Positions 4,801-41,739 of a stretch of 64,000 nucleotides of DNA are shown in pieces. Each line of letters begins with the position of its first letter. Within the stretch, counting starts at the first letter, position 1. Source of the stretch: an uncultured Spirochaetales bacterium (GTDB lineage: Bacteria > UBP6 > UBA1177); contig CAZVWR010000002.1 in assembly GCA_964630905.1 (NCBI GenBank), positions 23,531-87,530 on the forward strand, given 5' to 3'. The notes under the pieces were generated by a model. It was given only the letters and a program-made list of their open reading frames with translations. It was not told the origin of the DNA and ran no database searches. A program made the translations under genes and the position numbers.

Positions 4801-4872
4801 AAATTCAGGAAAATTTTCTTACTCGCCAGAAAACTGAAAAAAGTGGAATTTGTTTAGGGGTTTGGGGGTCAT
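4801..4872 (+). repeat. Intergenic repeat copy B
   Basis: aaattcaggaaaattttcttactcgccagaaaactgaaaaaagtggaatttgtttagggg. Confidence 0.85.
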
Positions 4873-4885
4873 TATGGTTCTGAAA

Positions 4886-5101
4886 TCAGACCAGTTTTTT
4901 AAGTTGTTCGAGAGTTATTCCGACTTTTTTGATGATGTTGTTGAGTGTTCCCTTTTTTAGTTCATCGTGAACTGGAACAATGACAGAGATATGGCGGTCA
5001 AGATTGTACATAAAAATGTGGCTGCCACGCTGATGATCAACCACAAAACCGAGCCGCCTTAAAGCTCTAACTACCTCCCGCCCTGAAAATGTTTTGCTCA
5101 T
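4886..5101 (-). CDS. hicA: HicA-family mRNA interferase toxin
   Basis: [33 protein letters not shown]... YcfA/HicA fold; internal Met start, overlapping hicB stop by 4 nt. Confidence 0.75.
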
Positions 5102-5325
5102 AATCTGACCATTAGTTCTCTTACTTTTTTCTTTGTTCCGGTTTTGATCTGATTGAGTTTTTCGAGCCCTTCGAGATAGCACTTAATTGCTTCGGATGCA
5201 TTACGCAAAGCTTCTTCTTCGGTGTCTCCCTGCGTAAAACAACCGTCAAGCGCCGGAACAGTAACATTGAATCCGCCTTCTTCGGCTTTTTCAAGAACAA
5301 CATTAAATTTCATATCACGCCTCAC
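5098..5325 (-). CDS. hicB: HicB-family antitoxin
   Basis: [43 protein letters not shown] (UPF0150/HicB N-terminal domain). Confidence 0.75.
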
Positions 5326-5410
5326 TTCAAAATGTTAGCGGTAAATAGTTTACTCGTGGACAGCACCATTGTCAAATCAAAGAGTGCGAGGAAGTGAGTG
5401 GAAGAGCAAG

Positions 5411-5518
5411 AAAACAGATAAGATTTTCTTACTCTCTGGAAAACAAAGGAAAGTGGAGTTGATTTAGGGGGTTGGTGGTTAATTACAGTCACATTTTTAT
5501 ATATAAATATTGCTCCCT
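5411..5518 (+). repeat. Intergenic repeat copy C with 3' extension agtcacatttttatatataaatattgctccct
   Basis: Core and extension both shared with copy E (7073-7178). Confidence 0.85.
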
Positions 5519-6052
5519 GACCCCTATGTTTCCTTTCTCCCTGACCCCTATGTTTCCAATTGCTTCCTGCTCATAAAAATTTCTTGCTTCTTTGTTTGCA
5601 ACCCTCATCAATGCTCGATAATGTGACCATGACAATTTTGAAGAAAACAGTAATCGATCAAATTCGCCACCTGACGGGTAGCTTTTTAAATGCTCTAAAC
5701 CGGATTGGCTACCTGACGGGTAGCTTTTCCTCGGCAACCGGTCTGCGAATGAAATATAAAACTGTCTAAAATTTTTAATGTTTGCAAGAGAAAATCCTTC
5801 GCCATATCTTTTTGTAAGGTTTTCAGAAAGCTCAAACACAACTTTTTTTCCATATTCAGCTCTCTCCTCTCCGCCTTGAATCTCTTCAACTATTTCTCGA
5901 CCGATAAGCCAGTAGGCAGTCACCATGTTGCTGTTGACAGCACGGATAACATTGTTCCTTGCTTCCTCAAGAATCAAGACAACACGATCAAAAATATCGT
6001 TCTTCAAGTTACTGACTTTTTTCATCAAAACCCTCCGACACACAAAATTCAT
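5489..6052 (-). pseudogene. yhcG: YhcG-like (DUF1016 N-terminal domain) gene truncated at the repeat junction; C-terminal PD-(D/E)xK nuclease half missing
   Basis: LSWSHYRALMRV...EARNFYEQEAIGN matches the YhcG N-domain. The reading frame runs into repeat copy C and ends ...GNIGVREKGNIGVREQYLYIKM* across a 21-bp tandem duplication. Confidence 0.6.
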
Positions 6053-6107
6053 CGCTTCTTATATTCAATGTCCAGAGTCAATATATCTAATGCCAGATTA
6101 ATTTACA

Positions 6108-6180
6108 AGAAATTCAGAAAAATTATCTTACTCACCAGAAAACTGGGAAAAGTGGAGTTTATTTATAGGGTTGGTGGACA
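6108..6180 (+). repeat. Intergenic repeat copy D
   Basis: aaattcagaaaaattatcttactcaccagaaaactgggaaaagtggagtttatttatagggttggtgg. Confidence 0.85.
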
Positions 6181-6193
6181 AGGTTACGAATGT

Positions 6194-6568
6194 TTATGAT
6201 GAATACTTTGCCTTTTTTTCTGCAACTATCCAGGACTTTTCTTTGTGTTTGAATTTTTCAGTATTTTTATCAATAGGTATTATCTCAATTTTTATATCGA
6301 AGATATTTTGAAGTTTTGCTATTGTTTTCATATTAAGAAATTTGTCTGACCCGAAAAGCTGAGTCACGAAAGCTTTAGATGTTTCCATTTTTTCTGAAAG
6401 ATCTTTTCTGCTCATTCCTCTCTTATCCATAATATCCTGAATTTTAAAGAGAAACTCCATTTGTATCTTCATTGCATCAAATTCAATCTTCTCATTATTA
6501 TCAATGGGGGTGAGTGCAAACTTGAGAGCTTCCTCGATTTTGAGCTTTTTTCTTTCACTTGAACTCAT
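6194..6568 (-). CDS. HTH (XRE-like) DNA-binding protein, probable antitoxin
   Basis: MSRKDLSEKMETSKAFVTQLF helix-turn-helix; overlaps upstream ORF by 14 nt. Confidence 0.55.
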   Translation of the reverse strand: MSSSERKKLKIEEALKFALTPIDNNEKIEFDAMKIQMEFLFKIQDIMDKRGMSRKDLSEKMETSKAFVTQLFGSDKFLNMKTIAKLQNIFDIKIEIIPIDKNTEKFKHKEKSWIVAEKKAKYSS

Positions 6569-6992
6569 ATTCGTATCCTCCGATCGTTTTATATTTCTGT
6601 GTCAACCTTTTATCATTTCTTGAACTTTGCTTTTTTTCAACTGAAACAACGACAACCTTTTTATCTGAAAAGAAAAATTCTTTGCATATCACTCTTCTTT
6701 TACCGAATTTCATTGCTGTCAAGCTCCATTCTTTATACTCCATTTTATAGTGCATATCATCGTATCTGTTGTTCATTACAACCGTCAATATAGCAAAAAG
6801 TTTTTTTCTGTTTTCCATAAAAAGCTCTGAAATTTCCGCTTCATTTTTCAAATCAACATAAATTTCAACTTTTGGCTTCTCTTTTTCAAAAACTTCAATG
6901 AACTTGTTAATTTCCGCAGTAATGTTGCGGCAACTTCTCTTAATAGTTAACTGATTGGTTAATTTTTTGCAAGTTTTTTCTTCTCTACTCAT
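6555..6992 (-). CDS. Hypothetical protein, possible toxin partner of the downstream HTH (higBA-like gene order)
   Basis: 145 aa; overlaps the HTH gene. The only family resemblance is weak and low-confidence: the C-terminal stretch GKRRVICKEFFFSDKKVVVVSVEKK loosely resembles the RelE/HigB motif. Confidence 0.3.
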   Translation of the reverse strand: MSREEKTCKKLTNQLTIKRSCRNITAEINKFIEVFEKEKPKVEIYVDLKNEAEISELFMENRKKLFAILTVVMNNRYDDMHYKMEYKEWSLTAMKFGKRRVICKEFFFSDKKVVVVSVEKKQSSRNDKRLTQKYKTIGGYEYEFK

Positions 6993-7072
6993 TTAGTTAA
7001 ATCCGTTTATTCAAATCAACAAAATTCTTCTGATTAGAAATTTATATCTATTAGTTATTTATTGCAATAAAA

Positions 7073-7178
7073 CATTCATAATATTTTCTTACTCACCAAA
7101 AAAACTGAAAAAAGTGGAATTTGTTTAGGGTGTTGACGGCAACTAAAGTCACATTTTTATATATAAATATTGCTCCCT
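7073..7178 (+). repeat. Intergenic repeat copy E with the same 3' extension as copy C
   Basis: atattttcttactcaccaaaaaaactgaaaaaagtggaatttgtttagggtgttgacggcaactaaagtcacatttttatatataaatattgctccct. Confidence 0.85.
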
Positions 7179-7221
7179 ATTTTATTCGAAATAGAAGATA
7201 TTGCAGAACTATGCTTTATCC

Positions 7222-7927
<706 letters not shown>

Positions 7928-8048
7928 TGAAAAATCCAAAGCATTTTAACAGATAAAAAATGTAAATACAAAAATTATAAACGATTTGAATTTGAAAAAT
8001 TTTGTATCGCGATGAATTCTCCGCAGGGGCAGAGGACTGAAAACGGAA

Positions 8049-8088
8049 CGGGGAATGCTCCTTGACGGAGCGTTACCCCGTTTTAAGC
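8049..8088 (+). other. GC-rich hairpin (acggggaatgctcc-ttgac-ggagcgttaccccg) followed by tttt, lying in a GC-rich patch of an AT-rich intergenic region
   Basis: Inverted repeat read directly; no upstream + strand gene for it to terminate. Confidence 0.4.
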
Positions 8089-8282
8089 ACAGAGGCGGTG
8101 CCGTCGTGAGACATCAAACAGATCCGAGAACTGACTTGCGTGAAGTGTAATAGCAAACTTGGCAATAATCTTCCGTCTGAAAATTAGAGCTATACGCAGT
8201 ATCCTTGTTTATTTATTTTGCAATTTACAATCTCCTATCGTATATTATTTTGAAATTTGTTAGAATTTTAAAGGGGGATACA

Positions 8283-8711
8283 ATGAAACAAAAAGTTTTA
8301 ATGTTTGTGCTGACATTAGTGTTTGCGGCATCATGTGGCGAAGACAGTGAAAAAGAAAACTACTCTTTAACTGAAACAGGAAAACTCTATTGCGAAAAAT
8401 ATAAAGAGTGTGTGCCTGAAGAATGGGAAGAGACCTTTTCTGACCAGGAAAAAGGGATGGAATACTGTATTAATTCCTTAGAGAAAGAAATAAATTCTGA
8501 AGTTGAGGAAGGAGACATGGTCAACACTTATGAGTGTAGAAAGGGCTTATATGATTATTACAAGTGCCTTTCAATTCTAACCTGTGAAAAATATCTTGAA
8601 GCATCGGAATATACATCTGAAGATGAAACAGGAATGTGCCTTTTTGAGCTCAAAGAATTTGCGAAGCACTGTTCTGCTCCCAGCGATGAAGACGAAGAGT
8701 TCGAAGAATAA
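8283..8711 (+). CDS. Small Cys-rich secreted lipoprotein
   Basis: MKQKVLMFVLTLVFAASCGE lipobox; 8 Cys; acidic C-terminus; SD aagggggat precedes the ATG. Confidence 0.6.
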   Translation: MKQKVLMFVLTLVFAASCGEDSEKENYSLTETGKLYCEKYKECVPEEWEETFSDQEKGMEYCINSLEKEINSEVEEGDMVNTYECRKGLYDYYKCLSILTCEKYLEASEYTSEDETGMCLFELKEFAKHCSAPSDEDEEFEE

Positions 8712-8837
8712 AGATAAAAATCCATCAGTAGTAAATTCACAACACCTTTAAAAGTTGTTTACTTAACACACCGAAACGATAAAGGAGAGGTCTTAAGATT
8801 GGCACTTATAGCGGCCTTGATGAAATCAATATGCCTG

Positions 8838-9344
8838 CTACAAACTTTTCTCAATTTCTTTGATCAGTTCAGGGTGTTTTTCACTTTTAAATATTATTCT
8901 GCCTGTTCTGTCGAGCATGAACATCTGCGGAACCACTGCGGAACCGTTCTTGTCTACTATGCCGAACTTTTTTCCGGTTATGGAATATTTGTCAAAAACG
9001 ACTGGGAACGAAATCTTCTGTTTTTTGAAAAACTCTTTTATTTTCACTAATTCTGCCGATCTGTCTTCTTCAACCGGAATGACTATAACAACAAATTTAA
9101 GTCCTTTCGCTGAATACTTGCGGTATACTTCATCCCATTTTGAAATTGATTTTTTACATGGCTCGCAATGTATTGAAAAAAAATCAGCGACCATGATCTT
9201 TGTATCATCTTTTTCAAGTTCCTTCTGAGATGAGTATAAAACATCATCAAGGGTATAAAGATCGAACTTTTTGACATCTTCATCACCGCTCATCCGGAAA
9301 GACAGAAACACAACTGCTATCATCAGAAAAATCCGTTTTTTCAT
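8838..9344 (-). CDS. Thioredoxin-fold thiol:disulfide oxidoreductase (TlpA/ResA/redoxin family)
   Basis: Signal peptide; FFSIHCEPCKK (CxxC) active site. Confidence 0.75.
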   Translation of the reverse strand: MKKRIFLMIAVVFLSFRMSGDEDVKKFDLYTLDDVLYSSQKELEKDDTKIMVADFFSIHCEPCKKSISKWDEVYRKYSAKGLKFVVIVIPVEEDRSAELVKIKEFFKKQKISFPVVFDKYSITGKKFGIVDKNGSAVVPQMFMLDRTGRIIFKSEKHPELIKEIEKSL

Positions 9345-9429
9345 AATAAGCTCCGTAATTGGATCACTGCAAAAAATCTTGATGCCGATTATACATTAAA
9401 CTTTTTAACCTTGCAAATTTAGAGGGAAT

Positions 9430-10341
9430 TTAAAGCAGTTTTGTCACCATCTTCGTAACATCAACTTCCATTTTGGAAAATCCGAACCATTTTCTGCCGA
9501 GATCTTTCAATGACGCGCCGAAATGATAGAGGTCGCGATTGTCAATTATCATGAATCTGTCATGGGAATGATTGAATTCTTTTATTTCAGCGGGCGGGAA
9601 CTGTTCATTGAATTTCTTTATGTCAAGTTGAAGTTGTTTTGAAGGGTTTTTGGTGAGAATTTTGAGCACGACCCCATCTTTCCGTTTTGAAAAAAGTGTG
9701 AGGACGGTATCATCAACATAATTGTCAATGAGGATGATCGACTTTTCAGCGGAACGGACAATATCCGAAACAAATTTGTGTGCGTCAAAAACCTGACCGT
9801 CAAAAAAGATGCCTTGCTTTGGCTGAATTTGCTTTGATTCAAGGGCTGAAAGCACTTTTTCGATTTTATTATCGGTTTCTATCTGCTTAACTTCCACAAA
9901 GGCAAGTCTTTGGAAAATCTCCGCATTTGATGTAATAAAATGCCTCATCTTAACAAAAGCGTCCATTATGAGAATGCTTACATCAATTGCAGTTTTGCTT
10001 TTCAAAACGGCTGAAAGCATTGCCACACCTTGTTCAGTGAAAACATATGGAACATATTTTCTATACTGACCTCTCCCACCCAACAATTTAGTCAATGATT
10101 TCGGATTGTTATTCTCTAAGGTCACAAATTGTGACCTTAGAGAACTATATTCATTCTCGGTAAGCCGGAATCTAAATCTTTCTGGAAAGCGTCCTTCATT
10201 TCTTTTTACAGCCTGATTTAAAACCTTTGTGTCAACTTGATATAGCTCAGCAAGATCACTATCCAGCATCACTTGCATTCCACGAATTGTGAAAATCCTT
10301 CTTTTAATCTCATCAATCTTTATCAGCTCGTTTTCAACCAT
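9430..10341 (-). CDS. ORF6N-domain protein (phage antirepressor-type DNA-binding N-domain)
   Basis: IRGMQVMLDSDLAELYQVDTKVLNQAVKRNEGRFPERFRFRLT matches ORF6N; 303 aa. Confidence 0.65.
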   Translation of the reverse strand: MVENELIKIDEIKRRIFTIRGMQVMLDSDLAELYQVDTKVLNQAVKRNEGRFPERFRFRLTENEYSSLRSQFVTLENNNPKSLTKLLGGRGQYRKYVPYVFTEQGVAMLSAVLKSKTAIDVSILIMDAFVKMRHFITSNAEIFQRLAFVEVKQIETDNKIEKVLSALESKQIQPKQGIFFDGQVFDAHKFVSDIVRSAEKSIILIDNYVDDTVLTLFSKRKDGVVLKILTKNPSKQLQLDIKKFNEQFPPAEIKEFNHSHDRFMIIDNRDLYHFGASLKDLGRKWFGFSKMEVDVTKMVTKLL

Positions 10342-10400
10342 CTTTCAACTCCTAAATTTTAGTCACCGATAGATAATGCAACAATTAGATTAAATATGCA

Positions 10401-10440
10401 AGAAAACGAATAAGATTATCTAACTCGTCCCGGAAAGGCT
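10401..10440 (+). repeat. Partial copy F of the 3.7-7.2 kb intergenic repeat
   Basis: aagattatctaactcgtcccggaaagg aligns with aagattttcttactctctggaaaacaaagg of copy C. Confidence 0.5.
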
Positions 10441-10445
10441 TGAGA

Positions 10446-10742
10446 TTACAGAATATCGAGTCCGATCGTGGCTTTCTCGGACACACCTATGAAAAGGGTC
10501 ACCTGAACTCCGTTTGACTGGAAAAGTTTTTTCACTTCGCTATAGAGAACATTTTTCAATTCCTCTTTATCTGCAAACTTATATTCCCCGATAAAGGTGA
10601 ACCGCGGAAGATCGCGAAGGGTGTCTCCTTCTGTTTTGATCCTGCTGTAAAGCCCTATCTCCTCGAGTTCTCCGTTGAAAAAATCGTGGTTGTAATTTTC
10701 TGCCTTGATCACTTCATAACTTAAAAAAGCGAAATAATGCAT
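10446..10742 (-). CDS. Hypothetical small protein (98 aa)
   Basis: ORF only; no motif recognised. Confidence 0.4.
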   Translation of the reverse strand: MHYFAFLSYEVIKAENYNHDFFNGELEEIGLYSRIKTEGDTLRDLPRFTFIGEYKFADKEELKNVLYSEVKKLFQSNGVQVTLFIGVSEKATIGLDIL

Positions 10743-10750
10743 TGAGTTAC

Positions 10751-11296
10751 CTATTTTGAAGAAAGTTTATTCACTATCGCAATTGCAAATTTTTCAGCGG
10801 CGGCAGGCCCGTTGCCTGTTATTATGTTACCGTCCTCAACAACTTCTCCACCACTGAAAACCGCACCGTATTTTTCCATCACGGCGCTTGTTTTCATTCC
10901 GTATTCAGCATCATCACCAAGCCATACTGTCGTCTTCTTTCCTTTGACAGCACCGGCTTTTGCAAGGATCGTGGGAGCCCAGCAGATCGCACCGAGAACT
11001 TCATGACCTGCACTGTTCTTAGCTATTTCAACTGCCCTCTTATCCGCCCTGACAGAAGGAACACCGGCTCCGCCGACAAAAACAACAGCGTCAAATTCAG
11101 ATTCATTCACTTCATCAAGTGTCTTTTTTACATCGAATTTTGCACCGAACATGCCGGTCGCAACACCTTTTTTCAAGCTCGCAACAGTTACTGAAGCACC
11201 TTCATCAACAAATTTCTTGAAAGGAATTTCAAACTCTTCATCCCTGAACTTCTCCGGCGCAATGATCATAAGGATCTTTTTGCTTTTAATTTTCAT
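10751..11296 (-). CDS. DJ-1/PfpI family protein
   Basis: ILMIIAPEKFRDEEF...AICWAPTILAKAG nucleophile-elbow Cys; 181 aa. Confidence 0.85.
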   Translation of the reverse strand: MKIKSKKILMIIAPEKFRDEEFEIPFKKFVDEGASVTVASLKKGVATGMFGAKFDVKKTLDEVNESEFDAVVFVGGAGVPSVRADKRAVEIAKNSAGHEVLGAICWAPTILAKAGAVKGKKTTVWLGDDAEYGMKTSAVMEKYGAVFSGGEVVEDGNIITGNGPAAAEKFAIAIVNKLSSK

Positions 11297-12473
11297 CTTC
11301 TCCTCCTTGATAATCGTTTTTCCAAAGATGCTGTCTTTGATATTTTATGACATTGTTAAGAACTCTCTTTCTTGCGGCACATATCTGATTTTTCTTGTAT
11401 TCTTCATGACTTGCCCTTCCCTCTCTGCTTTCTTTGAAGCTTTCTTCATCAAGGATCTGTATCTCAAATGGAAAAAAGAAACGGTAAACAATTTCAGGTT
11501 TGAAAAAATCCTTGATAGTTATAAGCTGTCTTCCTGTCAACTGGAGAGATGAATAAAGAGTCGAAGAATATAAATTGTTCTCTTTGATTATCCTGTCTGT
11601 TTCCAGCTCCTTCTCTTCGGGCGGAAGCTGAAGGTGCCTTTCAAGAAACTCCGCCACATCATCATCTTTCCAGCTTGAAAGATCGTGTGAGTTAAGTTCT
11701 TCTATTCCCTGCAGAAATCTTTCAACATTTATCAGATTGTTCCTTGTTCTGCTCGGCTTGATATTTGCAAAAGAGACCACATGATTAACAGAAAAGTATT
11801 TCAGAACAAGAATGACATCAAGCTTGTTATATGTGACGATCCTCACACCAATCCTGTCAAAGACATCCGCTGTTACATTCTCTTTTTTATGAAGAAGTTT
11901 CAGCAACAGGCTCTCTCTGCTTTTTTCGTTCTTCATCTCAAACATTTTGAGCTGTATCTTCTGATCACCTTCACCCAGATAATATTCCCCTGTTCTGCTG
12001 AGCTTCAGATGATCCATAAACCTTGAAAATATCTGCTTTTTTATCCCAGGCATAAAACTTTTTGCAAGATCGTTCTCGATATGGGTTATCGTATGGGCAA
12101 CCCTGAGAACAGAACACGCCCATGCCTGAAGCAGAGTTTTTTCCTTTTCTGAAGCCATAATTAGCATATCGAGAATATTGTCATTGAAAAGAACTTCAGG
12201 GGGCATTAAAAGTGCAGGGTCGCCCCCTTCAGGATCTTCAAGCAGATAGTTCTGAATGAAGTTTTTGGATTCCTGAAGAATAAGGCCTACTTTCTGTTTC
12301 ATCAGAGGATCAGTTGTGTCGTAACCGTAATTTCTCATATAACTCAAAGCGGTCGCTTCATCATGGACATTGAGCCGGTTTATATCAATGAAGCTTTTCC
12401 TTGAAAAAACTACATTGAACAACTCATAAGGGAATTTAAGAAAGTTTTTTTCAATTCTGTTTTTTGGTTCCAT
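11286..12473 (-). CDS. Hypothetical protein, possible nucleotidyltransferase (RelA/SpoT-like DRIGVRIV motif)
   Basis: DVFDRIGVRIVTYNKLD resembles the RelA/SpoT synthetase-fold motif; otherwise no match. Confidence 0.3.
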   Translation of the reverse strand: MEPKNRIEKNFLKFPYELFNVVFSRKSFIDINRLNVHDEATALSYMRNYGYDTTDPLMKQKVGLILQESKNFIQNYLLEDPEGGDPALLMPPEVLFNDNILDMLIMASEKEKTLLQAWACSVLRVAHTITHIENDLAKSFMPGIKKQIFSRFMDHLKLSRTGEYYLGEGDQKIQLKMFEMKNEKSRESLLLKLLHKKENVTADVFDRIGVRIVTYNKLDVILVLKYFSVNHVVSFANIKPSRTRNNLINVERFLQGIEELNSHDLSSWKDDDVAEFLERHLQLPPEEKELETDRIIKENNLYSSTLYSSLQLTGRQLITIKDFFKPEIVYRFFFPFEIQILDEESFKESREGRASHEEYKKNQICAARKRVLNNVIKYQRQHLWKNDYQGGEDEN

Positions 12474-12546
12474 ATCCGTTTCCTGAAAAGATCAAAGCCC
12501 TATTCTACAGAAAATAAGGATTCCGACAAATTTTTGTTTTCAGTAT

Positions 12547-12957
12547 TCATTCATTGATCTTTAAAACGGCAGATCTCGTAACTTCCTTAAGTTCATCAGG
12601 TCTGAAAGGTTTTCCAAGAAATCCGAACGCTCCGTTTCTCATTGCCGCATCAGCAGTTTCAACCGAAGGAAATGCGGTGATCATTATAGTAAGCGGTTTG
12701 TTTACACATTCTTTTGAAATCATTTCGAGCACTTCGGTTCCGGACATACCGGGAAGCTTGTTGTCAAGGAAACAGATGTCAAACCTTTCTTCAATAATAG
12801 CGGAAACACCCTCTTCACCAGTTTCAAAAATAGCGATTTCAAACTTAAAACTCTCTTCAGTCCCGGGTATTGTCATGTTTGCTGCCGAAAGAACTCTTCT
12901 TATCCCTTCACGGATACCGAACTCATCATCGATAACAATAACTTTGACAGTTTTCAT
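12547..12957 (-). CDS. Stand-alone receiver domain response regulator
   Basis: VKVIVIDDEFGI...DICFLDNKLPG; 136 aa. Confidence 0.8.
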   Translation of the reverse strand: MKTVKVIVIDDEFGIREGIRRVLSAANMTIPGTEESFKFEIAIFETGEEGVSAIIEERFDICFLDNKLPGMSGTEVLEMISKECVNKPLTIMITAFPSVETADAAMRNGAFGFLGKPFRPDELKEVTRSAVLKINE

Positions 12958-12966
12958 ATCCGGCTC

Positions 12967-14967
12967 CTAATATTCAGGTTTTTTTCTTGGCAGGGTAATG
13001 GTGAAAGTGGTTCCTGTCGGACCTTTGACACTGCTTGAATTTGAAACGACATTTATCTGCCCTTTATGCATTTTTATTATCCCGTAACTTACCGGTAGTC
13101 CTAGACCGGTTCCCTTTCCTGCAGGCTTGGTAGTAAAGAAAGGAACAAAAAGCTTATCCATATTCTCAGCTGGAATGCCCAGACCGTTGTCAGATATCTT
13201 TATAACAAGGTCTTTTTCGCTGCCGCCTATTGTTATTTTAACTTCTCCGCCCTTTTCCTCCACAGCTTCGACACTGTTCTTCACAAGATTTGTCAGAACC
13301 TGTTTTATCTGCTCCCTGTCAATATCGGCATTGTCTGAACTACCTTCATTGATGATCTCAAAAATGACATTGTCAGGCTTTATTATCCCTCTGAGAACTG
13401 ATTCAATCAGCTCAGGAATATCGGTTTTTTCATAGTTCACATCGTTCTTTCTTGCAAAGTTCAAAAGCCCGCCGACAATGTTCTTACACCTTTCAGCCTG
13501 TTCGGATATCAGTTTTATGTCATGATAAAGCTGAGAATCTTTCTCAATTTCATCAATGAGAAGATTCGAATAGAGCAGCACCACTCCCAGAGGATTGTTC
13601 ACTTCATGAGCAATTCCTGCCGCAAGCTGACCCATACTGGCAAGTTTTTCATTGTGTTTCAGAGCACTTCTTGCAGATTCAAGTTCTGTGATCGATCTGT
13701 GAAGCTGTTCTATCGTGTTTGGAAGACACATTTCCGATTCTGCAAGACCGTTAATTATTGCAACAGCATGTTCAACACAGGTCTCATATCCGCAGGCTCC
13801 GCAGTTCAGCATATCTTCGTCATGGATCTTACCCATCTTTTTAAGAGTTTCGGTTATATTGATGCCGTTAGGCGGTTCGATCCTCTGATCAAGATCAACA
13901 TACTCCCTTGAAAGATCAAGCTCTCTGTATTTTTCCATATACTTAAGCCAGAGTTCATTGTCCATTGTCGAAAGTTTCTGCTTTACATAATTTGCAACAT
14001 TTGACCTTCTTACAAACCTTTTCCCTTCTTCACTCATTCCAGGACCCATTATGCAGCCCTGACAGCACAGAAGTTCCAGATGATGGTTATGAAGAACACC
14101 GGAATCAAATTCCTTAAGAGATTCAATGAGTTCGTGCCTTCCTTCAGCGACAATAATATTAGTGGTTGATATGTCGACATTCATTTTTATCGTCTGGAGC
14201 ATCCCTCTTGTCACAGGAAATATCGCCCCTCTTCCCCCGACCGGAGGATCAAATTCGGTCGGATTAACCATTTCAGGAGTTATGCTGTGATTTTTGAAAG
14301 CATCTCTGAGCTCAGTAAATGTAAGGGCGTTATCAATTATTCCTGAAACCATCGGGTCATCAGCTTCGTTTTTCTTTGCTATGCAGGGACCGATGAAAAC
14401 GATCTTAACATCTTCACCATATTCAGCTTTCACAACTTTTCCCATCGCTATCATCGGACTTACAACTTTTCCGATGTTCTTGACCAGTGAAGGGTGATAA
14501 TGCTGAATAAAGTTCACAGCCGCAGGACAGTTGCCGACTATTGTAAATATTTCAGGTGATATATCTTCAAGCACTTCCTTATATTTTTCCGCAACGAGGT
14601 CTGCACCGAAAGCCACTTCGGTAACATAGGTGAACCCGAGCTTCCTTATCATTGAAACAAGCAGTCTGTAATCGCTTATCTCATTGAATTCAGCCGGAAA
14701 ACTCGGTGCAACTATTGCGACAACCTTTTTTCCTGATGCCAGAATATGTTCAACTTCCTCCAGAGAACCTCTGAATTTCTTTGCACCCTGAGAACAGACC
14801 TTCACGCAGTTTCCACAGCAGATGCATCTTTCGGATATGATCTCAGCCTGTCCTGATGTGACTCTTATCGCTTTTGCCGGGCATTCTCTGACACAGGTAT
14901 AACAGAGTTTACACCGTTCCTTAATCGTATAAAGCAGTGGTCTTGCGTCGACAGTTGCATTCATCAT
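12967..14967 (-). CDS. Sensor histidine kinase with N-terminal 2x[4Fe-4S] ferredoxin and a degenerate [FeFe]-hydrogenase large-subunit-like domain
   Basis: CKLCYTCVRECP and CICCGNCVKVC. Hydrogenase-like segment VVAIVAPSFPAEF ... GNCPAAV (L1 degenerate) ... GPCIAKKNE (L2 conserved) ... ELLCCQGCIMGPG (L3-like). Extra CGACGYETC. HisKA H-box AAGIAHEVNNPLG. HATPase_c G-boxes. Confidence 0.75.
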   Translation of the reverse strand: MMNATVDARPLLYTIKERCKLCYTCVRECPAKAIRVTSGQAEIISERCICCGNCVKVCSQGAKKFRGSLEEVEHILASGKKVVAIVAPSFPAEFNEISDYRLLVSMIRKLGFTYVTEVAFGADLVAEKYKEVLEDISPEIFTIVGNCPAAVNFIQHYHPSLVKNIGKVVSPMIAMGKVVKAEYGEDVKIVFIGPCIAKKNEADDPMVSGIIDNALTFTELRDAFKNHSITPEMVNPTEFDPPVGGRGAIFPVTRGMLQTIKMNVDISTTNIIVAEGRHELIESLKEFDSGVLHNHHLELLCCQGCIMGPGMSEEGKRFVRRSNVANYVKQKLSTMDNELWLKYMEKYRELDLSREYVDLDQRIEPPNGINITETLKKMGKIHDEDMLNCGACGYETCVEHAVAIINGLAESEMCLPNTIEQLHRSITELESARSALKHNEKLASMGQLAAGIAHEVNNPLGVVLLYSNLLIDEIEKDSQLYHDIKLISEQAERCKNIVGGLLNFARKNDVNYEKTDIPELIESVLRGIIKPDNVIFEIINEGSSDNADIDREQIKQVLTNLVKNSVEAVEEKGGEVKITIGGSEKDLVIKISDNGLGIPAENMDKLFVPFFTTKPAGKGTGLGLPVSYGIIKMHKGQINVVSNSSSVKGPTGTTFTITLPRKKPEY

Positions 14968-14968
14968 T

Positions 14969-15241
14969 TCACAGTTTCCCTCTCGGTTTATCCAGAAGCT
15001 CTTTTACAGTTTCAGTCATTCTTTCAAGATCGGCGACAACACTTGTGATTATTTTCTGCTGGTTGGGGGTGAGTTCACCGGCATATCCGTCTTTAAGGGT
15101 GTATGCGCTTAAAACTGCACTCGAAAGTGCTCCTTTCAGTTCATGCGAAAGAAGCGAGATCATTTTTTTAAGCTCCTCAAATGTTTCATTATCAACTTTT
15201 TCTTTTACCAGAGATAAAATATCGACTTTCGACATATCCAA
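14969..15241 (-). CDS. Small HisKA-like phosphoacceptor-fragment protein
   Basis: LSHELKGALSSAV H-box-like; 90 aa; 2 bp upstream of the sensor kinase. Confidence 0.4.
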   Translation of the reverse strand: MDMSKVDILSLVKEKVDNETFEELKKMISLLSHELKGALSSAVLSAYTLKDGYAGELTPNQQKIITSVVADLERMTETVKELLDKPRGKL

Positions 15242-15361
15242 AATGAACCCCCCTGAAAACGACCGCCTGATTATATAACCATTTTTACTGCCAATTCAAC
15301 TACAATTTTGATTTCCTTTAACAAAAATATATTATATCTGCGTGTTTTTTGAGAGGGGGTT

Positions 15362-16108
15362 ATGGAAAAGATCATTAAATGCTGCGGCGGCAGAGCTGAA
15401 ATTCATCAGTACAAAGGGACAAACAGCAACATCTATCTTGTCAGCTATCAGGAAGAAGGAAGAACTGTCGTGGTTGACTGCGGACTTCCGTGGGACATTC
15501 CGGGACTTATTGAATATATTGACAAAAACAATCTGCCGCCTGTTGAAAAAGTTATCTGCACCCATTTTCATGTCGATCACTGTTCGGGCTGGGTCGAACT
15601 TAAAAAGGTTCTTAAATCCGCTCCCATACATTTTCACATTGATGCAGCCCCTTTTGTAGACGGAACAAAAACGATGGAGATGCCTGCATTTTCCGATTTC
15701 AAAGAGATAATGATCCCTGTAATGAAAGAGAATCAGTACATGCCTGAGCTTAAAGAGGCAATAAAAACGCTATATTACGGGACATCGTTTAAAAGCAGGT
15801 TCCCGATGGACAGAGTTGTTTTTTTCGACGGCAAAGACAACCTCATTCCCGGATTTCTGACGATTCACACTCCGGGACACAGACCGGAATCGGTCAGCTT
15901 TTTCGATCCATCATCGGGAGTATTCATTTCAGGAGATTTCATAATTGTAATGAATGGAAAGATCGTTGTGAACACCTTTGTATATGACAGTCATAAACAG
16001 ATGGAAAGCTTTGAAAAAGTTAAAAAACTTGAAGACTTAATGTATCTTCTGCCCGGTCATGGCGAAATAAAACATTTCAACGAAAAACTTCTGAAATATA
16101 AGATCTGA
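15362..16108 (+). CDS. MBL-fold metallo-hydrolase
   Basis: THFHVDHCSGW (HxHxDH) and downstream His/Asp ligands. Confidence 0.8.
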   Translation: MEKIIKCCGGRAEIHQYKGTNSNIYLVSYQEEGRTVVVDCGLPWDIPGLIEYIDKNNLPPVEKVICTHFHVDHCSGWVELKKVLKSAPIHFHIDAAPFVDGTKTMEMPAFSDFKEIMIPVMKENQYMPELKEAIKTLYYGTSFKSRFPMDRVVFFDGKDNLIPGFLTIHTPGHRPESVSFFDPSSGVFISGDFIIVMNGKIVVNTFVYDSHKQMESFEKVKKLEDLMYLLPGHGEIKHFNEKLLKYKI

Positions 16109-16122: not shown

Positions 16123-16950
16123 CTATTCCCCGCCTGTGTCAACAGTGAAAGAGAAGAAATCGCTTCCGTAACGGGCGGCATCTGTTCCTGTAAGACTTTT
16201 AACAGGTTTGAGAACGGCAAAAAACTTGTATGTTCCAATTAACGGAGCATCAGATAAATCTCTGAAATTAACAATTATCTTTCCTGAATCCTTATCAAAT
16301 TCAACTACTTCCGGAAGTTCAGCCGAAACTCCTGAAACAAACCATGAAAAAACATAATCATCTTTTACGACATCATCAACCACTGTTTTTTCTGGGATAA
16401 AACTCACTTCTTTCGGAACACTCGACGGACTGAACACAACTGACGAACCTTTTTCAATACTTATCTTCTGAGCACTTCCCGTCACATCGTATTCCATCTG
16501 CGAAATTTCAGGATTTACTCCGAAACTGTCAGGTTTATATCCCGATCCCGCAATTCTGAACATTTTGACTGCATTGTTTCCACTGTTCCTGATACCTACC
16601 TCGATGCTTACATCGGCATAACCGTTTCTTCTAATTTCAGCAGCAGTATCATCACCGAAAAGAGTTGACACATCATCCGGTATTGTGAACTCTGCGGTGG
16701 TCTTTCCTGCAAAGACCATGTTGCCTACACTTATATCCACCAACGGTTCTTCACCTCTGCCGTCATCAACTGCAACTGAAACAGCGATCTTTGTCCCGGG
16801 CGTTGCAACGGGCGGATCGACCTTCACCGATACCACAGAATTTTCGAGAATAACATCATCCCTTGAAAATTCCACCTCGTTGCAGGAAACAGAAATGAAA
16901 ACTAAAAACGCTATTAACACACTGAATTTTTTCATGATATTCCTCCTCAT
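16123..16950 (-). CDS. Secreted hypothetical lipoprotein
   Basis: Signal peptide FLVFISVSC; no motif. Confidence 0.45.
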   Translation of the reverse strand: MRRNIMKKFSVLIAFLVFISVSCNEVEFSRDDVILENSVVSVKVDPPVATPGTKIAVSVAVDDGRGEEPLVDISVGNMVFAGKTTAEFTIPDDVSTLFGDDTAAEIRRNGYADVSIEVGIRNSGNNAVKMFRIAGSGYKPDSFGVNPEISQMEYDVTGSAQKISIEKGSSVVFSPSSVPKEVSFIPEKTVVDDVVKDDYVFSWFVSGVSAELPEVVEFDKDSGKIIVNFRDLSDAPLIGTYKFFAVLKPVKSLTGTDAARYGSDFFSFTVDTGGE

Positions 16951-19436
16951 CAGAAATCTCCTCTAACGCCGACAGTTCCCAATACCGGATAGAGATAAAG
17001 TCCGCCACTTTCCGAGTAGTCACTGTTATAGATCACATCCATTTTTGCATTGGAACCCTTTATGTCACCATAGATCCCGAGAATGAAATCCTTAAAGAAC
17101 AGTGCATATTCAATTCTGAAACCGTATCCGACTGAATTGGAAAGTCTTATTCCGTTTATGTCATCCTCTTCAAATACCGGCACATAAATTCCGGCATCTG
17201 CCAGATATGTTGTTCCGGCAAGTCCGGTCATCAATGTTCCGGATGCTACTGAAATATCACCGGAAACAGTCCAGTTCTTGAGGAAATTATATGAAAGCGC
17301 CGCTTTTAAAATATGGGGAATATCGCCATCAGCCCTTCTTTCTTCCAATGATTCGCTGTCAGTTCTCAAACTTTTAACAAACGAATAAGATACCCAGCCT
17401 GTCACTTCCTTGTTTGAATATCCTGCTTTTATCTCGGTTCCTGCCGCCCAACCCTTTCCTGTGTTTTCATAATCGGTGATCTCTTCAGGATTTCTTCTTA
17501 TAAGGTCATAAAAATACTTGTAAAATCCAGCGACATCGGCTGTAAAACCTTCATATTCAAACGCAAATCCGAGTTTTGCATGAACAGCCTTTTCATAGTT
17601 AAGAGCTTCGTTACCGAGCTTATGGAAAACAATATCATACTGCGGTCTTTTTGAATACATTCCGCCGTTTGCATAAACTTTCATCCATTTAGTGATATCA
17701 TACGAAAGGTAAAGTCTCGGATCGATCGAACCTGACCACTCCTTTTTATTGTGAAAATCTCCCGAAACATATACTCCCGGAACAGCTTCAAACCCTTTGG
17801 CAAAGAAACGGTATTTCAAGTAAAGTGACGGGTGGATATATCCAATGTTATCAGCCTGAGAAAGCATCCCTGACGATCTTATCATACCCGGTTCGCCTTC
17901 AAGCGGAAGGAGAAGGAACGATGTATCTGTCGAAAATATTCCGGCGGCAAAAACAACCCCGAGGTCAAATCTGTTGCCTTCATTTATCTTAAAACTAAGA
18001 TGTTCTTCTATTGTTCCGCGATTGTCGATCGTCGTTAATTTTTCCCCTTTGAAAACATGATAATTAAAATCTGAAAGGACAAAACTTCCTGTAAATCTTG
18101 AATTCATTGATGCTGTTTTATATATGTGATCACCTTTTGCAAGGATGAACATCATTTCAGGGGAAAGCGATTCGCCAAGAACAGGAACATTTTTGTTTTT
18201 CAAAGTTGAAAGATGATAAAGGTTGTCCCTTGCTCCTGCAATTGTAAGAACTATTGAATTCTTACAGTCAATTTCATACAGATATCTGATGTGTCCGCTG
18301 AGATTACCCTGTGAAACTATTGAATTTTCATCATCATATGCAACTCTTGTGAAAAGATCGTCAGCTCCGAAATCAAATGAGATGGAAAAATAATTGGATT
18401 TAGCAAGAGGACCTTCCGCCATCAGCGAAACTCCGAACATGCTCAGATCAAATGTCCCCCCTATGTTGTCGGTTCTAGGGTCCTTGAAGAACAGATTGGT
18501 CACTCCTCCGATGGAATCACCAAGCTCTGGACCGAAATTTCCTGAATAAATATAAGTGCTTTTAAGAACATTCTGATCTATTACACTTTTTTCTGTCAGC
18601 ATGTGATGAGAAAAGGGAACTTTCACTCCATCAATGTAATAACTGTTCTCATTTGAACTGCTGCCGCCCATTATTAAGCCGGTTCCGTAAGCAGTTGAAG
18701 GAAGTCCGTTATAGACAAAGGGCATTTTAGATGTCGAGTTTTCGTTCTTATATCTGATGAGTTTTCTTTTTGCCGCTTCGATCGGTCCTGTTATGTCTGT
18801 CCCCGATTCTCTCTCTTCAAGCTGCTGCGGAGAATCAAAATAATACTGCTCAACTTTTTTCTTTTTTTCCTCAACCGGCTGTGTTTCAACAGGTTTTGCC
18901 GCCTCAACAGGCTTTGCCGCCTCAACAGGTTTTGCCGCCTCAACAGGCTTCTTAACCTCAACAGGCTTTGCCGCCTCAACAGGCTTCTTCACATCAACAG
19001 GCTTTGCCGCCTCAACAGGCTTCTTCACCTCAACAGGCTTTGCCGCCTCAACAGGCTTTGCCGCCTCAACGGGCTTTGCCGCCTCAACGGGCTTTGCCGC
19101 CTCAACGGGCTTTGCCGCCTCAACAGGTTTTGCCGCCTCAACAGGCTTTGCCGCCTCAACGGGCTTTGCCGCCTCAACAGGTTTTGCCTTTTTCTCCTTT
19201 ACCGGTTTCTTTTTGCCGGCAGTTATCGGAACAAGTTCAGGTGCTGCAACCACCGGTTCCTCTTTCTTTTCTTCTATTTTATCTTCTTTCTTCTCTTCTT
19301 TCTCTTCCTTCTTTTCCTCTTTTTCCACCTTTTCTTTGTCTTCAGTTTTTTCAGGTGCAAACTTCTTTTTCTGTGCACTCAGGAACAAAGGAAGACAAAA
19401 AATAAGAACCAGAAATAAAATAACGATCCTTTTCAT
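16950..19436 (-). CDS. Outer-membrane beta-barrel protein with N-terminal Lys/Glu-rich and (AAKPVE)n repeat region
   Basis: Signal peptide MKRIVILFLVLIFCLPLFLSA; ~20 PVEAAK repeats; alternating amphipathic strands; C-terminal ...RGDF (terminal Phe). Start set at ATG 19436 (SD aggagg). Confidence 0.6.
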   Translation of the reverse strand: MKRIVILFLVLIFCLPLFLSAQKKKFAPEKTEDKEKVEKEEKKEEKEEKKEDKIEEKKEEPVVAAPELVPITAGKKKPVKEKKAKPVEAAKPVEAAKPVEAAKPVEAAKPVEAAKPVEAAKPVEAAKPVEAAKPVEVKKPVEAAKPVDVKKPVEAAKPVEVKKPVEAAKPVEAAKPVEAAKPVETQPVEEKKKKVEQYYFDSPQQLEERESGTDITGPIEAAKRKLIRYKNENSTSKMPFVYNGLPSTAYGTGLIMGGSSSNENSYYIDGVKVPFSHHMLTEKSVIDQNVLKSTYIYSGNFGPELGDSIGGVTNLFFKDPRTDNIGGTFDLSMFGVSLMAEGPLAKSNYFSISFDFGADDLFTRVAYDDENSIVSQGNLSGHIRYLYEIDCKNSIVLTIAGARDNLYHLSTLKNKNVPVLGESLSPEMMFILAKGDHIYKTASMNSRFTGSFVLSDFNYHVFKGEKLTTIDNRGTIEEHLSFKINEGNRFDLGVVFAAGIFSTDTSFLLLPLEGEPGMIRSSGMLSQADNIGYIHPSLYLKYRFFAKGFEAVPGVYVSGDFHNKKEWSGSIDPRLYLSYDITKWMKVYANGGMYSKRPQYDIVFHKLGNEALNYEKAVHAKLGFAFEYEGFTADVAGFYKYFYDLIRRNPEEITDYENTGKGWAAGTEIKAGYSNKEVTGWVSYSFVKSLRTDSESLEERRADGDIPHILKAALSYNFLKNWTVSGDISVASGTLMTGLAGTTYLADAGIYVPVFEEDDINGIRLSNSVGYGFRIEYALFFKDFILGIYGDIKGSNAKMDVIYNSDYSESGGLYLYPVLGTVGVRGDF
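18880..19200 (+). repeat. About 18 tandem copies of an 18-bp unit (gccgcctcaacaggcttt and variants) inside the OMP gene
   Basis: Directly visible periodicity; encodes the AAKPVE repeats. Confidence 0.9.
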
Positions 19437-19446
19437 CGGAAACCTC

Positions 19447-22400
19447 CTAAACAGAAACCCCAAACCTCATTACTTCAAGGATAAATTTATCAACTTTATA
19501 ACCCGACTTTTCAGCCGCGGCGATAAGGTTCTTCACAACTTCATATCTTCTTTTGAATTCCACTTTTCTTTCAGATATTTTCTCAATGTTCCTGAGTATT
19601 TCAAGGGCCGAAATAACAAACAGTCCCGCCATAAAATTCTCAAAAGCTTCTTTGTTGAACCACCTCTCTCCTTCGTATTCATTGATCTGAAGGATTGAAA
19701 TCATGTTATCATCGGCAAAAACCTCTTCCATAAGTTTTACGATAAGGACTTCGGGTTCGTAATGTCTCCACCAGTTCTGGTAAAAAATGAAAGCCCTGAT
19801 GTGTCTGACCACGGTTTGTGCATGGTAATCGGTCATTCCGGTGGATTCAAAAAACTCTCTGAAAACGATGTTAAGCCTGTATTTTATGAACAGTTCCCAA
19901 CTCTTTTGCGCATCGTTCTTCTCACCAAAGATCATTGAAAGTCTCGCCCCTGTAACGAAACCCAGTACCATGTATAAGTAGTATTTGTCTTCTGAAAGAT
20001 TTCTGTGAAGATAGTCATCAGCCTCGATATCATAGTCTTTCAGCTTATATTTCGGAAGATCAATAACAGCGATCAGATCATTGATGAAAAGTCCCGCAAC
20101 ATCTCTGTTAATATGTTCAACACCTTCAAATCTGCTGAGTTCGTTTATGAATTTCTGATACTTATCTGCCAGAACTTTGTAAAATTTTGAAACAGGGCTC
20201 TTTTTCTTTTCGCTGAGCCTTTCTTCAACAAACTTTTCAAAAGTCTCCTTGCTGACAAAATCACGGAAAAGATCGTGTACCGGACGGAACCTTATTCTGT
20301 CAAGTTCAAGTTCAAGGTTTTCAACACCTGATCCATTAAGTTTTTCTGAAAGCTCTCTCCATGGCTCTAAAACAGAATCAGCAACTTCAGTAAAATCGCT
20401 GAAAACATAATATTTATAGGCATTTAATTTAACAAAAAAACCTTTGTCGCAAATTCCTTTACAGCTGAGAACATATTCCAGTCCGGTGATAAGATCCTTG
20501 AATTTCAGATATTTTTCTTCTCTGACACATATTCCGAGTGCTTCGTGAAGCTCTTTTCTTGCAAGAACCCCCGATCTTTTATCAAGGTATGCGGCAGATG
20601 TTTTTATCCATCCTTCTGTTGAAGCATACTTGTTGTGGTAGAACACCAGAACTCTTTTGTCACCGTAACCGTTTGAATATGCAAAAACATTTTCATCAAC
20701 ACTTCCGTCTGCCCGGTAAACATCAAAAAGATTGAAGTGTTCAACATGCGCGAACATGCTTCTTCTATGCATCAGGGGAAAAATATCCCTTTCATGCCTT
20801 TGAACAAGGTCCCAGTTGACTGATTCGTTCCAGTAAGCTTTTCTATATTCCATTCCGTATTTTTCAGAATATCCCTCTATCTGTCCATGGCCGAACATCG
20901 GCAGACCCGGCATAGTCACCATTGAAAGTGTAACTCCGAAATACTTGTCACCTGTTCCGAACTGTCTTACAGCAGTCTCTTCATCGGGATTATTCAGAAA
21001 ATTCACATGCCGCTCAAGGATGTGCGGATCAAATTCAAGAATATTCCTTATTGATTCCCGATACTTGGCATTGTCTTCGTCTTTCATGAAATTCATAAAC
21101 GCCGAATTGTAGACCCTGTGCATTCCAAGTGTCCTTACAAAATATCCTTCCATAAGCCAGAACGCTTCGGCAAGAAGAAGTGTTTCGGGGACTTCAGCAG
21201 CAACTCTGTCAACGACCTCTCTCCAGAATTCTTTCGGAAAATGGGTATTGAACTCCTCTCTTGTCATTCCGTGTTCCGATCTTGAAGCAATGTCTCCACC
21301 CCGCCCAGGCTCAGGGAACCACAGACGGTGATAATGTCTTTTCGCAAGTGTCATCGCGGCATCAAAACGGATTATCGGAAAATCTTTTGCTATGCTGATT
21401 ATTGTTCTGATAACATGCTCTCTCACATCTTCCCGCAGATAGTTAAGCTGTGCGGTATCGTTCCACGGCATGCATGTTCCGTCATTCCCATGATAGACAT
21501 ACCTGACATCGCCGTTTCTTTTATCCACCCTTTTAAATGTGACTGCGGCATCGGATTTTTCAAAATAATGGTCTTCAATAAATATTTCTGTTCCCGGATC
21601 ACTTGAAAGGTTCTCACCGTTATAAGTGTAACTCTGGAAAGGGGGTTCGTCTAATGAGAGAAACCATTCCGGATGTTCGTTGACCCATTTTGAATCTATT
21701 GCCATGTGATTCGGCACCATATCACTTGCTATCCTTATCCCGAACTGCCATGCTCTCTGCTTAAAGTTCTCAAAAGCAGTCTGTCCGCCGAGCTCTGTTG
21801 CAATTGAATAATCATAAAGGGAATATGCTGAAGCGACCGCATCATGATTGCCCATGATCTGCTTTATCCTCTTTGAAGCGGCACTCCTTTCCCACAACCC
21901 GATAAGCCACAAACCGGTAAAACCCCGCTTTGCAAGGGATTTCAGCTCATCGTCAGGAATTTTATCAAGGGTTGAAATATTTGTTGCGTATGTTTTTGAA
22001 AGCTGGTCAAGCCAGACAAAAACATTTTTTGCCATCATTACCACTCTTGGCATCCATGATGAGTCAACAGAAAAGTTCTCTGTTTCAACATCATAATAAT
22101 TCCAGTCACCTGATGAAAGGGATTCTTTTGTTATGACTTCCCCTCCATGACCGCCGCCGGGACCGAAGACAGGCCTGGTCTCTTCTTTCATTATGTCAAC
22201 AGAAACAAGAAGACGGTTTGAAAAATCCTTTAAAAGTTCAAGCCCCCAGTTTTCTTTCATATACAAAAGTTGACCTGCAAGAGAATCAGGAGACGCCCTG
22301 AACGGTGCTCTTAAAAGCTCTATGAGAGAGAACTTCTTGCCGTTAACAGTTATTTTTTCCTGTGAATCGAATGACTTTTCTATTGATGAAAAAGCTGAAA

Positions 22401-24940: not shown

Positions 24941-24943
24941 CTA

Positions 24944-40106: not shown

Positions 40107-40109
40107 TAT

Positions 40110-41731: not shown

Positions 41732-41739
41732 GAGGAACT

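Follow-up and report, generated by a model that had tools for sequence, protein, structure and literature searches.

A probable H2-sensing [FeFe]-hydrogenase–histidine kinase fusion and its apparently split gene cluster in an uncultured Spirochaetales bacterium

TmHydS of Thermotoga maritima (Group C, M2f) and TamHydS of Thermoanaerobacter mathranii (Group D, M2e) are the two [FeFe]-type sensors that have been characterised. In sensory [FeFe]-hydrogenases the ligating cysteines and the hydrogen-bonding residues are kept, while C299, M353 and M497 (CpI numbering) and the proton pathway are altered; despite these substitutions TmHydS and TamHydS bind the H-cluster and turn over H2 slowly [PMC10055695, PMC8163306]. 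An extra C-terminal [4Fe-4S] site with the spacing Cx2Cx4Cx16C defines groups C and D [PMC8163306]. The HydDB class C1 is described as "histidine kinase-linked (putative)" and "may sense H2" [PMC5037454]. Here we analyse such a protein, a 666-residue sensor kinase encoded in a 64,000-nucleotide stretch of DNA (the window; contig CAZVWR010000002.1, positions 23,531 to 87,530, assembly GCA_964630905.1) from an uncultured Spirochaetales bacterium. Placed by architecture and motifs, the protein appears to match the HydDB entry "[FeFe] Group C1, histidine kinase-linked (putative)". It is probably a cytoplasmic C1-type sensory [FeFe]-hydrogenase fused to a kinase and serving an H2-responsive phosphorelay that is tied to a hydrogenase of the bifurcating, HydABC-like type.

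Like the window protein, the described C1 proteins have a histidine kinase linked to a sensory-type H-domain, and a role in H2 sensing has been proposed for them [PMC5037454]. Their genes often lie beside group A3 bifurcating hydrogenase genes. Petrimonas mucosa is one example [PMC7768429], and in Hydrogenedentota the same holds for 21 of 53 C1 genes [PMC11406978]. However, the class is defined by sequence clustering, and some of its references reportedly lack a fused HATPase domain [PMC11406978]; moreover, a HisKA-only gene and a receiver of its own have been added in the window lineage, whose sensor has moved out of the hydCBA operon. TmHydS shares the N-terminal 2x[4Fe-4S] domain, the ligating cysteines and the C-terminal Cx2Cx4Cx16C, as well as the altered C299, M353 and M497 (M353 being Gly in both proteins) and the missing proton pathway [PMC10055695, PMC8163306]. 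It differs in that it ends in a PAS domain and has separate signalling partners, whereas in the window protein the Fe-S module leads into a DHp/CA core with no PAS domain. The relay position is Ala in TmHydS, Asn in the window protein and Asp in 63% of the kinase-fused family. TamHydS, a putative sensor as well, has the same three-cluster layout and no PAS domain, but the exchange of M353 for Ser/Thr is a hallmark of Group D, whereas the window protein has Gly, and the kinase of T. mathranii is encoded by a separate gene. In the [NiFe] Group 2b system HoxBC/HoxJ/HoxA, a slow, sensor-grade hydrogenase and a histidine kinase likewise control hydrogenase genes [PMC5037454]. Its metal site and fold are unrelated, however, sensor and kinase are separate proteins, and the output HoxA is a DNA-binding regulator, of which none was seen in the window cluster.

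Architecture and active-site motifs of the sensor kinase

The locus at 12547..15241 comprises three co-directional minus-strand genes in the list of open reading frames (ORFs): a HisKA-only gene (mini-HisKA), the sensor kinase and a stand-alone receiver (REC136). Its features are as follows.

14969..15241, minus strand: mini-HisKA, DHp-only protein of 90 residues from TTG 15241 or 88 residues from ATG 15235; Pfam HisKA alone
12967..14967, minus strand: sensor kinase, 666 residues; 2x[4Fe-4S] ferredoxin, predicted sensory-type H-domain, C-terminal [4Fe-4S] module, helical linker, HisKA, HATPase_c
14782..14925, minus strand: ferredoxin-like domain with two CxxCxxCxxxC motifs, residues 15-62; Pfam Fer4_10 and Fer4
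14041..14730, minus strand: H-domain, Fe_hyd_lg_C (PF02906), residues 80-309; E 1.4e-50, score 172.7 bits (cut-off 22.1)
14515..14541, minus strand: L1/P1, IVGNCPAAV; N146 at CpI C299 (proton relay), C147 at C300 ([4Fe-4S]H ligand)
14365..14397, minus strand: L2/P2, FIGPCIAKKNE; G193 at CpI M353, C195 at C355, K198 at K358, E201 at E361
14032..14082, minus strand: L3/P3, HLELLCCQGCIMGPGMS; L300 at CpI M497, C302 at C499, C305 at C503
13726..13803, minus strand: C-terminal Cx2Cx4Cx16C (C389, C392, C397, C414); Pfam PF04060 "FeS", residues 387-416, E 2.3e-8
13444..13635, minus strand: HisKA/DHp, residues 445-508, H-box AGIAHEVNNPL with His454; Pfam E 4.8e-12
12982..13320, minus strand: HATPase_c, residues 550-662, with N, G1, F and G2 boxes; Pfam E 3.5e-25
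12547..12957, minus strand: REC136, stand-alone receiver of 136 residues without output domain; Pfam Response_reg alone
15270..15299, minus strand: promoter-like site TTGAAT-18-TATAAT 5' of mini-HisKA; consensus match alone, 10/12

The domains of the sensor kinase were assigned from Pfam and NCBIfam matches; no Pfam match to Fe_hyd_SSU was obtained in the 666 residues. An earlier note on this DNA, made from the sequence alone, had proposed the fusion of ferredoxin, H-domain and histidine kinase, flanked by a receiver and a HisKA-only protein. Pfam confirms this arrangement at the positions given there, and the Fe_hyd_lg_C similarity on which the note had staked its proposal was found at the score listed above. 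The AlphaFold model of the protein has a pLDDT of 80.8 and is of low confidence solely at residues 1-5 and 428-458 (linker and first DHp helix). Over ~440 residues the model matches the structures of CpI and of HydA from HydABC, and its C-terminal part matches the ZraS kinase core. In Foldseek searches HydA of HydABC is the best match on the H-domain side (8a6t_A, E 4e-21), the matches to HydA and CpI lying at E ~1e-17 to 1e-21. For the kinase core the best of several solved-structure matches is ZraS (9jfj, E 2.3e-29). An alignment of 78 sequences shows all eight ferredoxin cysteines (C19, C22, C25, C29, C48, C51, C54 and C58) to be invariant, and the same holds for the class I (HisKA) kinase motifs H454, N560/N564, D593xG595xG597, F607/F610 and G617-G623. 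The kinase half is predicted to be an NtrB/AtoS/ZraS-like histidine kinase with intact catalytic motifs.

Residues of the H-domain were read, in CpI numbering, from an alignment with the window's own catalytic HydA and ~200 relatives, to which the following percentages refer. All four positions of the H-cluster cysteine ligands (C147, C195, C302 and C305) are kept, and they are 95-100% conserved. C147 is Cys in 100% and P148 is Pro in 100%. Within L2 the conservation is 99% for G193, 100% for the Pro, 99% for C195, 78% for K198, 99% for K199 and 100% for E201. In L3 (tabulated as ELLCCQGCIMGPG) the position of L300 holds Leu or Phe, and C302 and C305 are conserved at 95% and 99%. In the CN-contact region P88 (CpI P231) is conserved at 100% and S89 (CpI S232) at 97%. 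The four cysteines of the C-terminal Cx2Cx4Cx16C module, which the earlier note had overlooked, are 100% conserved.

The substitutions are of the sensory type: the relay Cys is replaced by Asn, Met353 by Gly and Met497 by Leu. Across the family the relay position is Asp in 63%, Asn in 27% and Ser in 6%, and never Cys. The group-A proton pathway is not kept, E279 being K, E or R, S319 being G or A, and R286 being absent. The prototypical Group A motifs (TSCCPxW, MPCxxKxxE and ExMxCxxGCxxGGGQP) are not matched, the window protein reading VGNCPAA, GPCIAKKNE and ELLCCQGCIMGPGM; the Group D mark, Ser/Thr for M353, is not matched either, with Gly here and in 99% of the family.

These readings bear on what had been said of the active site before. 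The L2 sequence GPCIAKKNE and the Cys-bearing L1 and L3 are found in the translation as the earlier note had given them. Its statement that the TSCC pair had been lost is half correct: the first, relay Cys (CpI C299) is replaced by Asn, but the second (CpI C300) is present and 100% conserved. Its description of the H-domain as degenerate has to be given up. Since the cysteine ligands are kept, together with the equivalents of P231/S232 and the Pro, Lys and Glu of L2, and since the substitutions are those of the H-cluster-binding TmHydS and TamHydS, the H-domain is to all appearances sensory-type and not degenerate.

Comparison with relatives places the protein in the same way. Its N-terminal ~430 residues are, in an alignment of 590 residues (E 1e-127), 36% identical to a HydS that contains a PAS domain and whose gene lies beside that of a SpoIIE phosphatase, as opposed to 28% identity (E 7e-26) of the H-domain to the window's own HydA. 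In a neighbour-joining tree of the H-domain region (58 sequences from the loci of the census described below), the kinase-fused sensors are monophyletic, the PAS-type sensors are monophyletic, and both together stand apart from the catalytic HydA proteins; this grouping with HydS-type sensory hydrogenases supports the sensor reading of the earlier note. The PAS-type HydS proteins from the fetched loci carry the same motif forms, i.e., xNCP (Asn at the relay position), GPCxxxKxE and CxGC..GPG. Of the features that mark Group C and C1, the window protein has homology of the H-domain, the four Cys ligands, the sensory substitutions, the N-terminal 2x[4Fe-4S] domain, Cx2Cx4Cx16C and the kinase fusion. 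The best 120 database matches all have the identical Pfam string, at 53-91% identity, and full-length homologues with identical Pfam architecture number in the thousands; several matches bear the source name [quoted passage not shown]. Relatives of the sensor kinase are encoded in at least 564 GTDB species-level genomes, and this genome scan returned none above 56% identity.

Gene context: one cluster in two halves

The mini-HisKA stop and the sensor-kinase ATG are separated by 1 base, and the sensor-kinase stop and the REC136 ATG by 9 bases, within which lies a GGAG. With gaps this short, the three genes read as one tightly coupled operon. A promoter and terminator scan of the region gave site counts not above shuffled-sequence expectation; the promoter-like site at 15270..15299, the one good -35/-10 pair upstream of mini-HisKA, is given as a consensus match. 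An Rfam scan of the whole window yielded zero matches, and no riboswitch or leader is evident.

At the other end of the neighbourhood the window carries a second set of related genes, and unrelated genes lie between the two sets.

6..1727, plus strand: HydA, 573 residues, catalytic-type subunit of a HydABC-like enzyme; Fer2_4, NADH-G_4Fe-4S_3, Fer4, Fe_hyd_lg_C (E 2e-92), Fe_hyd_SSU
1739..2134, plus strand: single-domain receiver, 131 residues, of the type that in other genomes comes directly downstream of the sensor kinase
2143..3270, plus strand: REC-HisKA-HATPase hybrid kinase (REC-kinase), 375 residues, second kinase of the cluster; Pfam
3288..3674, plus strand: single-domain receiver, 128 residues; directly before mini-HisKA in contig L004
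3858..4694: Bro-N
4886..5182: HicA toxin
5489..6052: N-terminal fragment of DUF1016
9430..10341: ORF6N

The earlier note had taken the two sets for hydrogenase-linked signalling systems separate from each other. Eighty genome loci, collected as a census with the window proteins as phmmer queries, point the other way. The loci come mostly from Bacteroidales metagenome-assembled genomes, and also from Fermentibacteria, Omnitrophica and other such genomes; a Chloroflexota genome is among the protein matches. In most genomes the gene for the sensor kinase is part of the HydCBA operon. In 74/80 loci HydA is followed in turn by the sensor kinase, a receiver (of the 131-residue type) and the REC-kinase, i.e., the sensor lies between HydA and the very genes that follow HydA in the window. 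HydA of this type is directly upstream of the sensor kinase in 71-74 of the 80 loci, and the REC-kinase comes after the receiver in 77. HydB is encoded in 74/80 loci, HydC in 68/80, Rex in 59/80 and HydG in 49/80. In L004, the closest long contig (sensor 65% identical), the whole set is contiguous in the order REC, HydC, HydB, HydA, REC, REC-kinase, REC, mini-HisKA, sensor, REC; L005 likewise keeps all parts contiguous.

Because the sensor stands among the first-locus genes in 74/80 genomes, and because the set is contiguous in L004, the two loci of the window are best read as halves of one conserved cluster, split and inverted here. The intervening DNA (3858..10341) looks like inserted mobile or defence-type material; small helix-turn-helix-like ORFs, a DJ-1/PfpI gene and others also lie between the halves. 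Rex and a PAS-type HydS were searched for in the 64-kb window, and none was found.

The HydA proteins beside C1 sensors vary in their own motifs. These were read by alignment, a regular expression for canonical L1-L3 having given many "none" results. In the window HydA, L1 (891..911, residues 296-302) is TSCSPAW, with Ser aligned to CpI C300 and Cys one position earlier; this form occurs otherwise solely in L004, L005 and a Ca. Fermentibacteria genome (L045). In the other HydA proteins L1 is split among (T/S)SCCPxW, ISACPAW (relay to Ala) and SSDCPAW (relay to Asp), and L2 between MPCxAKKFE and TPCMAMKFE. A further observation concerns the Bacteroidales genomes (L006-L087), many of which have two distinct putative H2 sensors at one hydCBA operon: a divergent PAS-type HydS is present in 50/80 loci and a SpoIIE/PP2C phosphatase in 44/80, with the kinase-fused sensor inside the operon (e.g., L087, 2012..5092 and 5831..14219).

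Two genes that flank the three-gene module were considered as members of the system and set aside, as each lies beside the module solely in L001 and L002, contigs of the same species, and in neither L003 nor L004. One, directly downstream of REC136 (11286..12473, minus strand), belongs to the TIGR04552/TIGR04562 family (E 1e-96) and shows a weak, sub-threshold match to the RelA_SpoT nucleotidyltransferase. The other, divergent from mini-HisKA (15362..16108, plus strand), has a metallo-beta-lactamase fold, with a sub-threshold match to the ODP family (E 5e-5).

Mini-HisKA and REC136 are additions found solely in the window lineage. In the 80-locus census, mini-HisKA lies upstream of the sensor solely in the window's own clade (L001-L005), and an exhaustive HMMER search of 1.84e9 representatives gave just two other 50%-identity clusters at E<=1e-10, both of short proteins. 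Public gene calls use ATG 15235 (88 residues) as its start. The protein has a Pfam HisKA match alone (E 2e-7), and its H-box LSHELKGAL keeps the phospho-acceptor His31, which is invariant in five orthologues; LSHELKRPL and an LKDGYxGE loop are common to the orthologues. The invariance of His31, together with the overlap of the gene with the start of the sensor in L003 and L004, speaks for a functional, co-translated protein and against a gene remnant. At H+4 the protein has Gly or Arg; phosphatase-competent DHp domains typically have Thr or Asn there. An origin from the DHp domain of another hydrogenase-kinase fusion was considered but found no support, the long matches that were checked (~610-657 residues) being ordinary Cache-HAMP kinases; within the window the best match is the DHp domain of the REC-kinase, and it is weak (27% identity, E 1e-3). 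Phosphotransferases of the Spo0B/ChpT type act between receivers in multi-step relays. Mini-HisKA may resemble them in a DHp-like helical hairpin whose His can be phosphorylated and in the lack of a working ATPase, and several stand-alone receivers are encoded nearby in the window and in L004. Spo0B and ChpT, however, retain a CA-like domain in degenerate form and have about twice the length, whereas mini-HisKA is DHp only (88-109 residues).

REC136 (Response_reg, PF00072, E 5e-21) has the acidic pocket, phospho-acceptor Asp and conserved Thr and Lys of receivers (D10/D11, D64, T93 and K115). With the REC domain of the REC-kinase (2143..3270) it shares 37% identity (E 2e-27), and the other receivers are far more distant from it. 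This paralogy suggests that the REC-kinase may be the ancestral phosphotransfer partner of the sensor.

Proposed function and its alternatives

From the sequence we infer that the sensor kinase senses H2. In the proposed mechanism, the H-domain would be matured with a [2Fe] subcluster, and its reaction with H2 would be slow. A redox or conformational change would follow, reach the DHp helices by way of the C-terminal Fe-S module and the helical linker (~415-458), and alter autophosphorylation at His454. The phosphoryl group would then be transferred to the adjacent REC136, and the signal might be carried onward by a relay of mini-HisKA (His31), the REC-kinase and the other single-domain receivers, such that production or activity of the HydABC-type hydrogenase would be tuned to the H2 level.

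Several points weigh against this proposal. The relay position is Asn, a poor proton carrier, and the Cys-Cys spacing in L3 is one residue tighter than in group A; the same CxGC spacing is common to PAS-type HydS proteins. None of hydE, hydF and hydG was found in the 64-kb window. The sensor module lies ~9 kb from the HydA-REC-REC-kinase-REC genes and on the opposite strand. Pfam detects no DNA-binding or other output domain in the cluster proteins. No biochemically tested kinase-fused member was found in the literature searched, and in TamHydS H2 does not reduce the C-terminal cluster [PMC13104023]. Moreover, one study could "hardly find" P1-P3 in C1 proteins and questioned H2 sensing [PMC11406978]. 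As read here, P1-P3 do occur in the kinase-fused proteins, in modified form, and an alignment in which the ligand positions are kept answers the doubt raised in that study.

Some of these points would fit a redox or O2 sensor without the [2Fe] subcluster, which would hold [4Fe-4S] only, as in Nar1/CIAO3, and would report ferredoxin/NADH redox state or oxygen, not H2. Cysteine ligands alone are no proof of a [2Fe] site, and Nar1-type proteins also retain the H-cluster Cys ligands. The proton-transfer residues are lost and M353 and M497 replaced, the N-terminal ferredoxin domain could take electrons from cellular carriers, and the clusters often encode Rex, another redox sensor; H-cluster binding in C1 has also been doubted [PMC11406978]. 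We nevertheless consider this reading improbable. The residues that contact the [2Fe] ligands are kept (P88, S89, K198 and E201, corresponding to CpI P231/S232, K358 and E361), the genes are in operons with hydCBA and often with hydG and hydE, and the closest characterised relatives, TmHydS and TamHydS, bind [2Fe] and turn over H2 [PMC10055695, PMC8163306].

The distance between the two gene sets, their opposite strands and the unrelated genes between them could also mean that the sensor kinase, mini-HisKA and REC136 form an autonomous two-component module with targets unrelated to the HydA-REC-REC-kinase-REC cluster. The module comes with a receiver and a promoter-like site of its own, and in L003 it stands alone with no hydrogenase within 8 kb. 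Such independence is nonetheless unlikely, given that 74/80 genomes interleave the sensor with exactly the first-locus genes, that L004 and L005 keep every part contiguous, that REC136 and the REC-kinase's REC domain are close paralogues, and that the intervening Bro-N, HicA, DUF1016 fragment and ORF6N are typical of inserted mobile material. Less probable still is an extra hydrogenase subunit that docks on HydABC for electron transfer or catalysis and in which the kinase part is secondary. The complete, motif-intact kinase core is invariant across the family and receivers always come next, the proton pathway for fast catalysis is absent, and the gene is detached from hydABC in the window and in L003; these features stand against the position of the gene directly after hydA in most genomes, the assignment of group C3 proteins to some BfuABC types as their "T subunit" [PMC11406978] and the metabolic role that has been raised for C1 [PMC8542988].

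The output of an H2-responsive sensor kinase may also take another form. The receivers of the cluster, three or four of them stand-alone, are all single-domain, with no DNA-binding output. This feature raises the possibility, which we regard as tentative and on the whole doubtful, of an H2-driven multi-step phosphorelay that acts on proteins and not on transcription (HydABC or Rex being possible targets), with mini-HisKA as a new minimal, DHp-only phosphotransfer or kinase-modulating protein.

Other window features and significance

Elsewhere in the window, an unrelated two-component pair (23495..25630, minus strand) comprises a Cache-HAMP-HisKA-HATPase kinase (23495..24940) and a response regulator ORF (24944..25630). 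The ORF listing also contains an 837-residue protein (16950..19463, minus strand) in which a long KPVEAA / KPVEVK tandem-repeat run near the N-terminus precedes a large C-terminal domain. A type I restriction-modification set at 35838..45827 (plus strand) consists of an hsdM-like gene (35838..37838), a specificity subunit (37835..39220) and an hsdR-like gene (42765..45827), with a DprA-like gene (40110..41096) within the set. The dnaN gene (59098..60324) is very divergent, with matches of 98%, 86% and 65%, then <=57%; about nine public relatives exceed 45% and the rest are at <=32%. It adjoins a stretch of 28-30% GC (54-58 kb) that holds a 1273-residue ORF (54498..58319). The host lineage appears to be poorly sampled.

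As for significance, TmHydS and TamHydS have no assayable output, and the role proposed for the sensory C-terminal cluster was recently challenged [PMC13104023]. Direct fusion to a kinase offers a simple read-out, autophosphorylation with versus without H2, which would make the signalling question testable. This advantage belongs to the whole kinase-fused family and not to the window in particular. The class is already catalogued and widespread; the lineage-specific mini-HisKA, the private receiver and the way the cluster is split count as minor variants. For the window itself the outcome is mostly clarifying, in that it appears to hold one split system with a sensory-type H-domain. For the family, the census adds that kinase-fused sensors keep every H-cluster ligand position, that in at least several phyla they are part of a strongly conserved HydCBA–sensor–REC–REC-kinase cluster, which may or may not include Rex, and that in many genomes a PAS/phosphatase-type and a kinase-type sensor are found at one hydrogenase operon.

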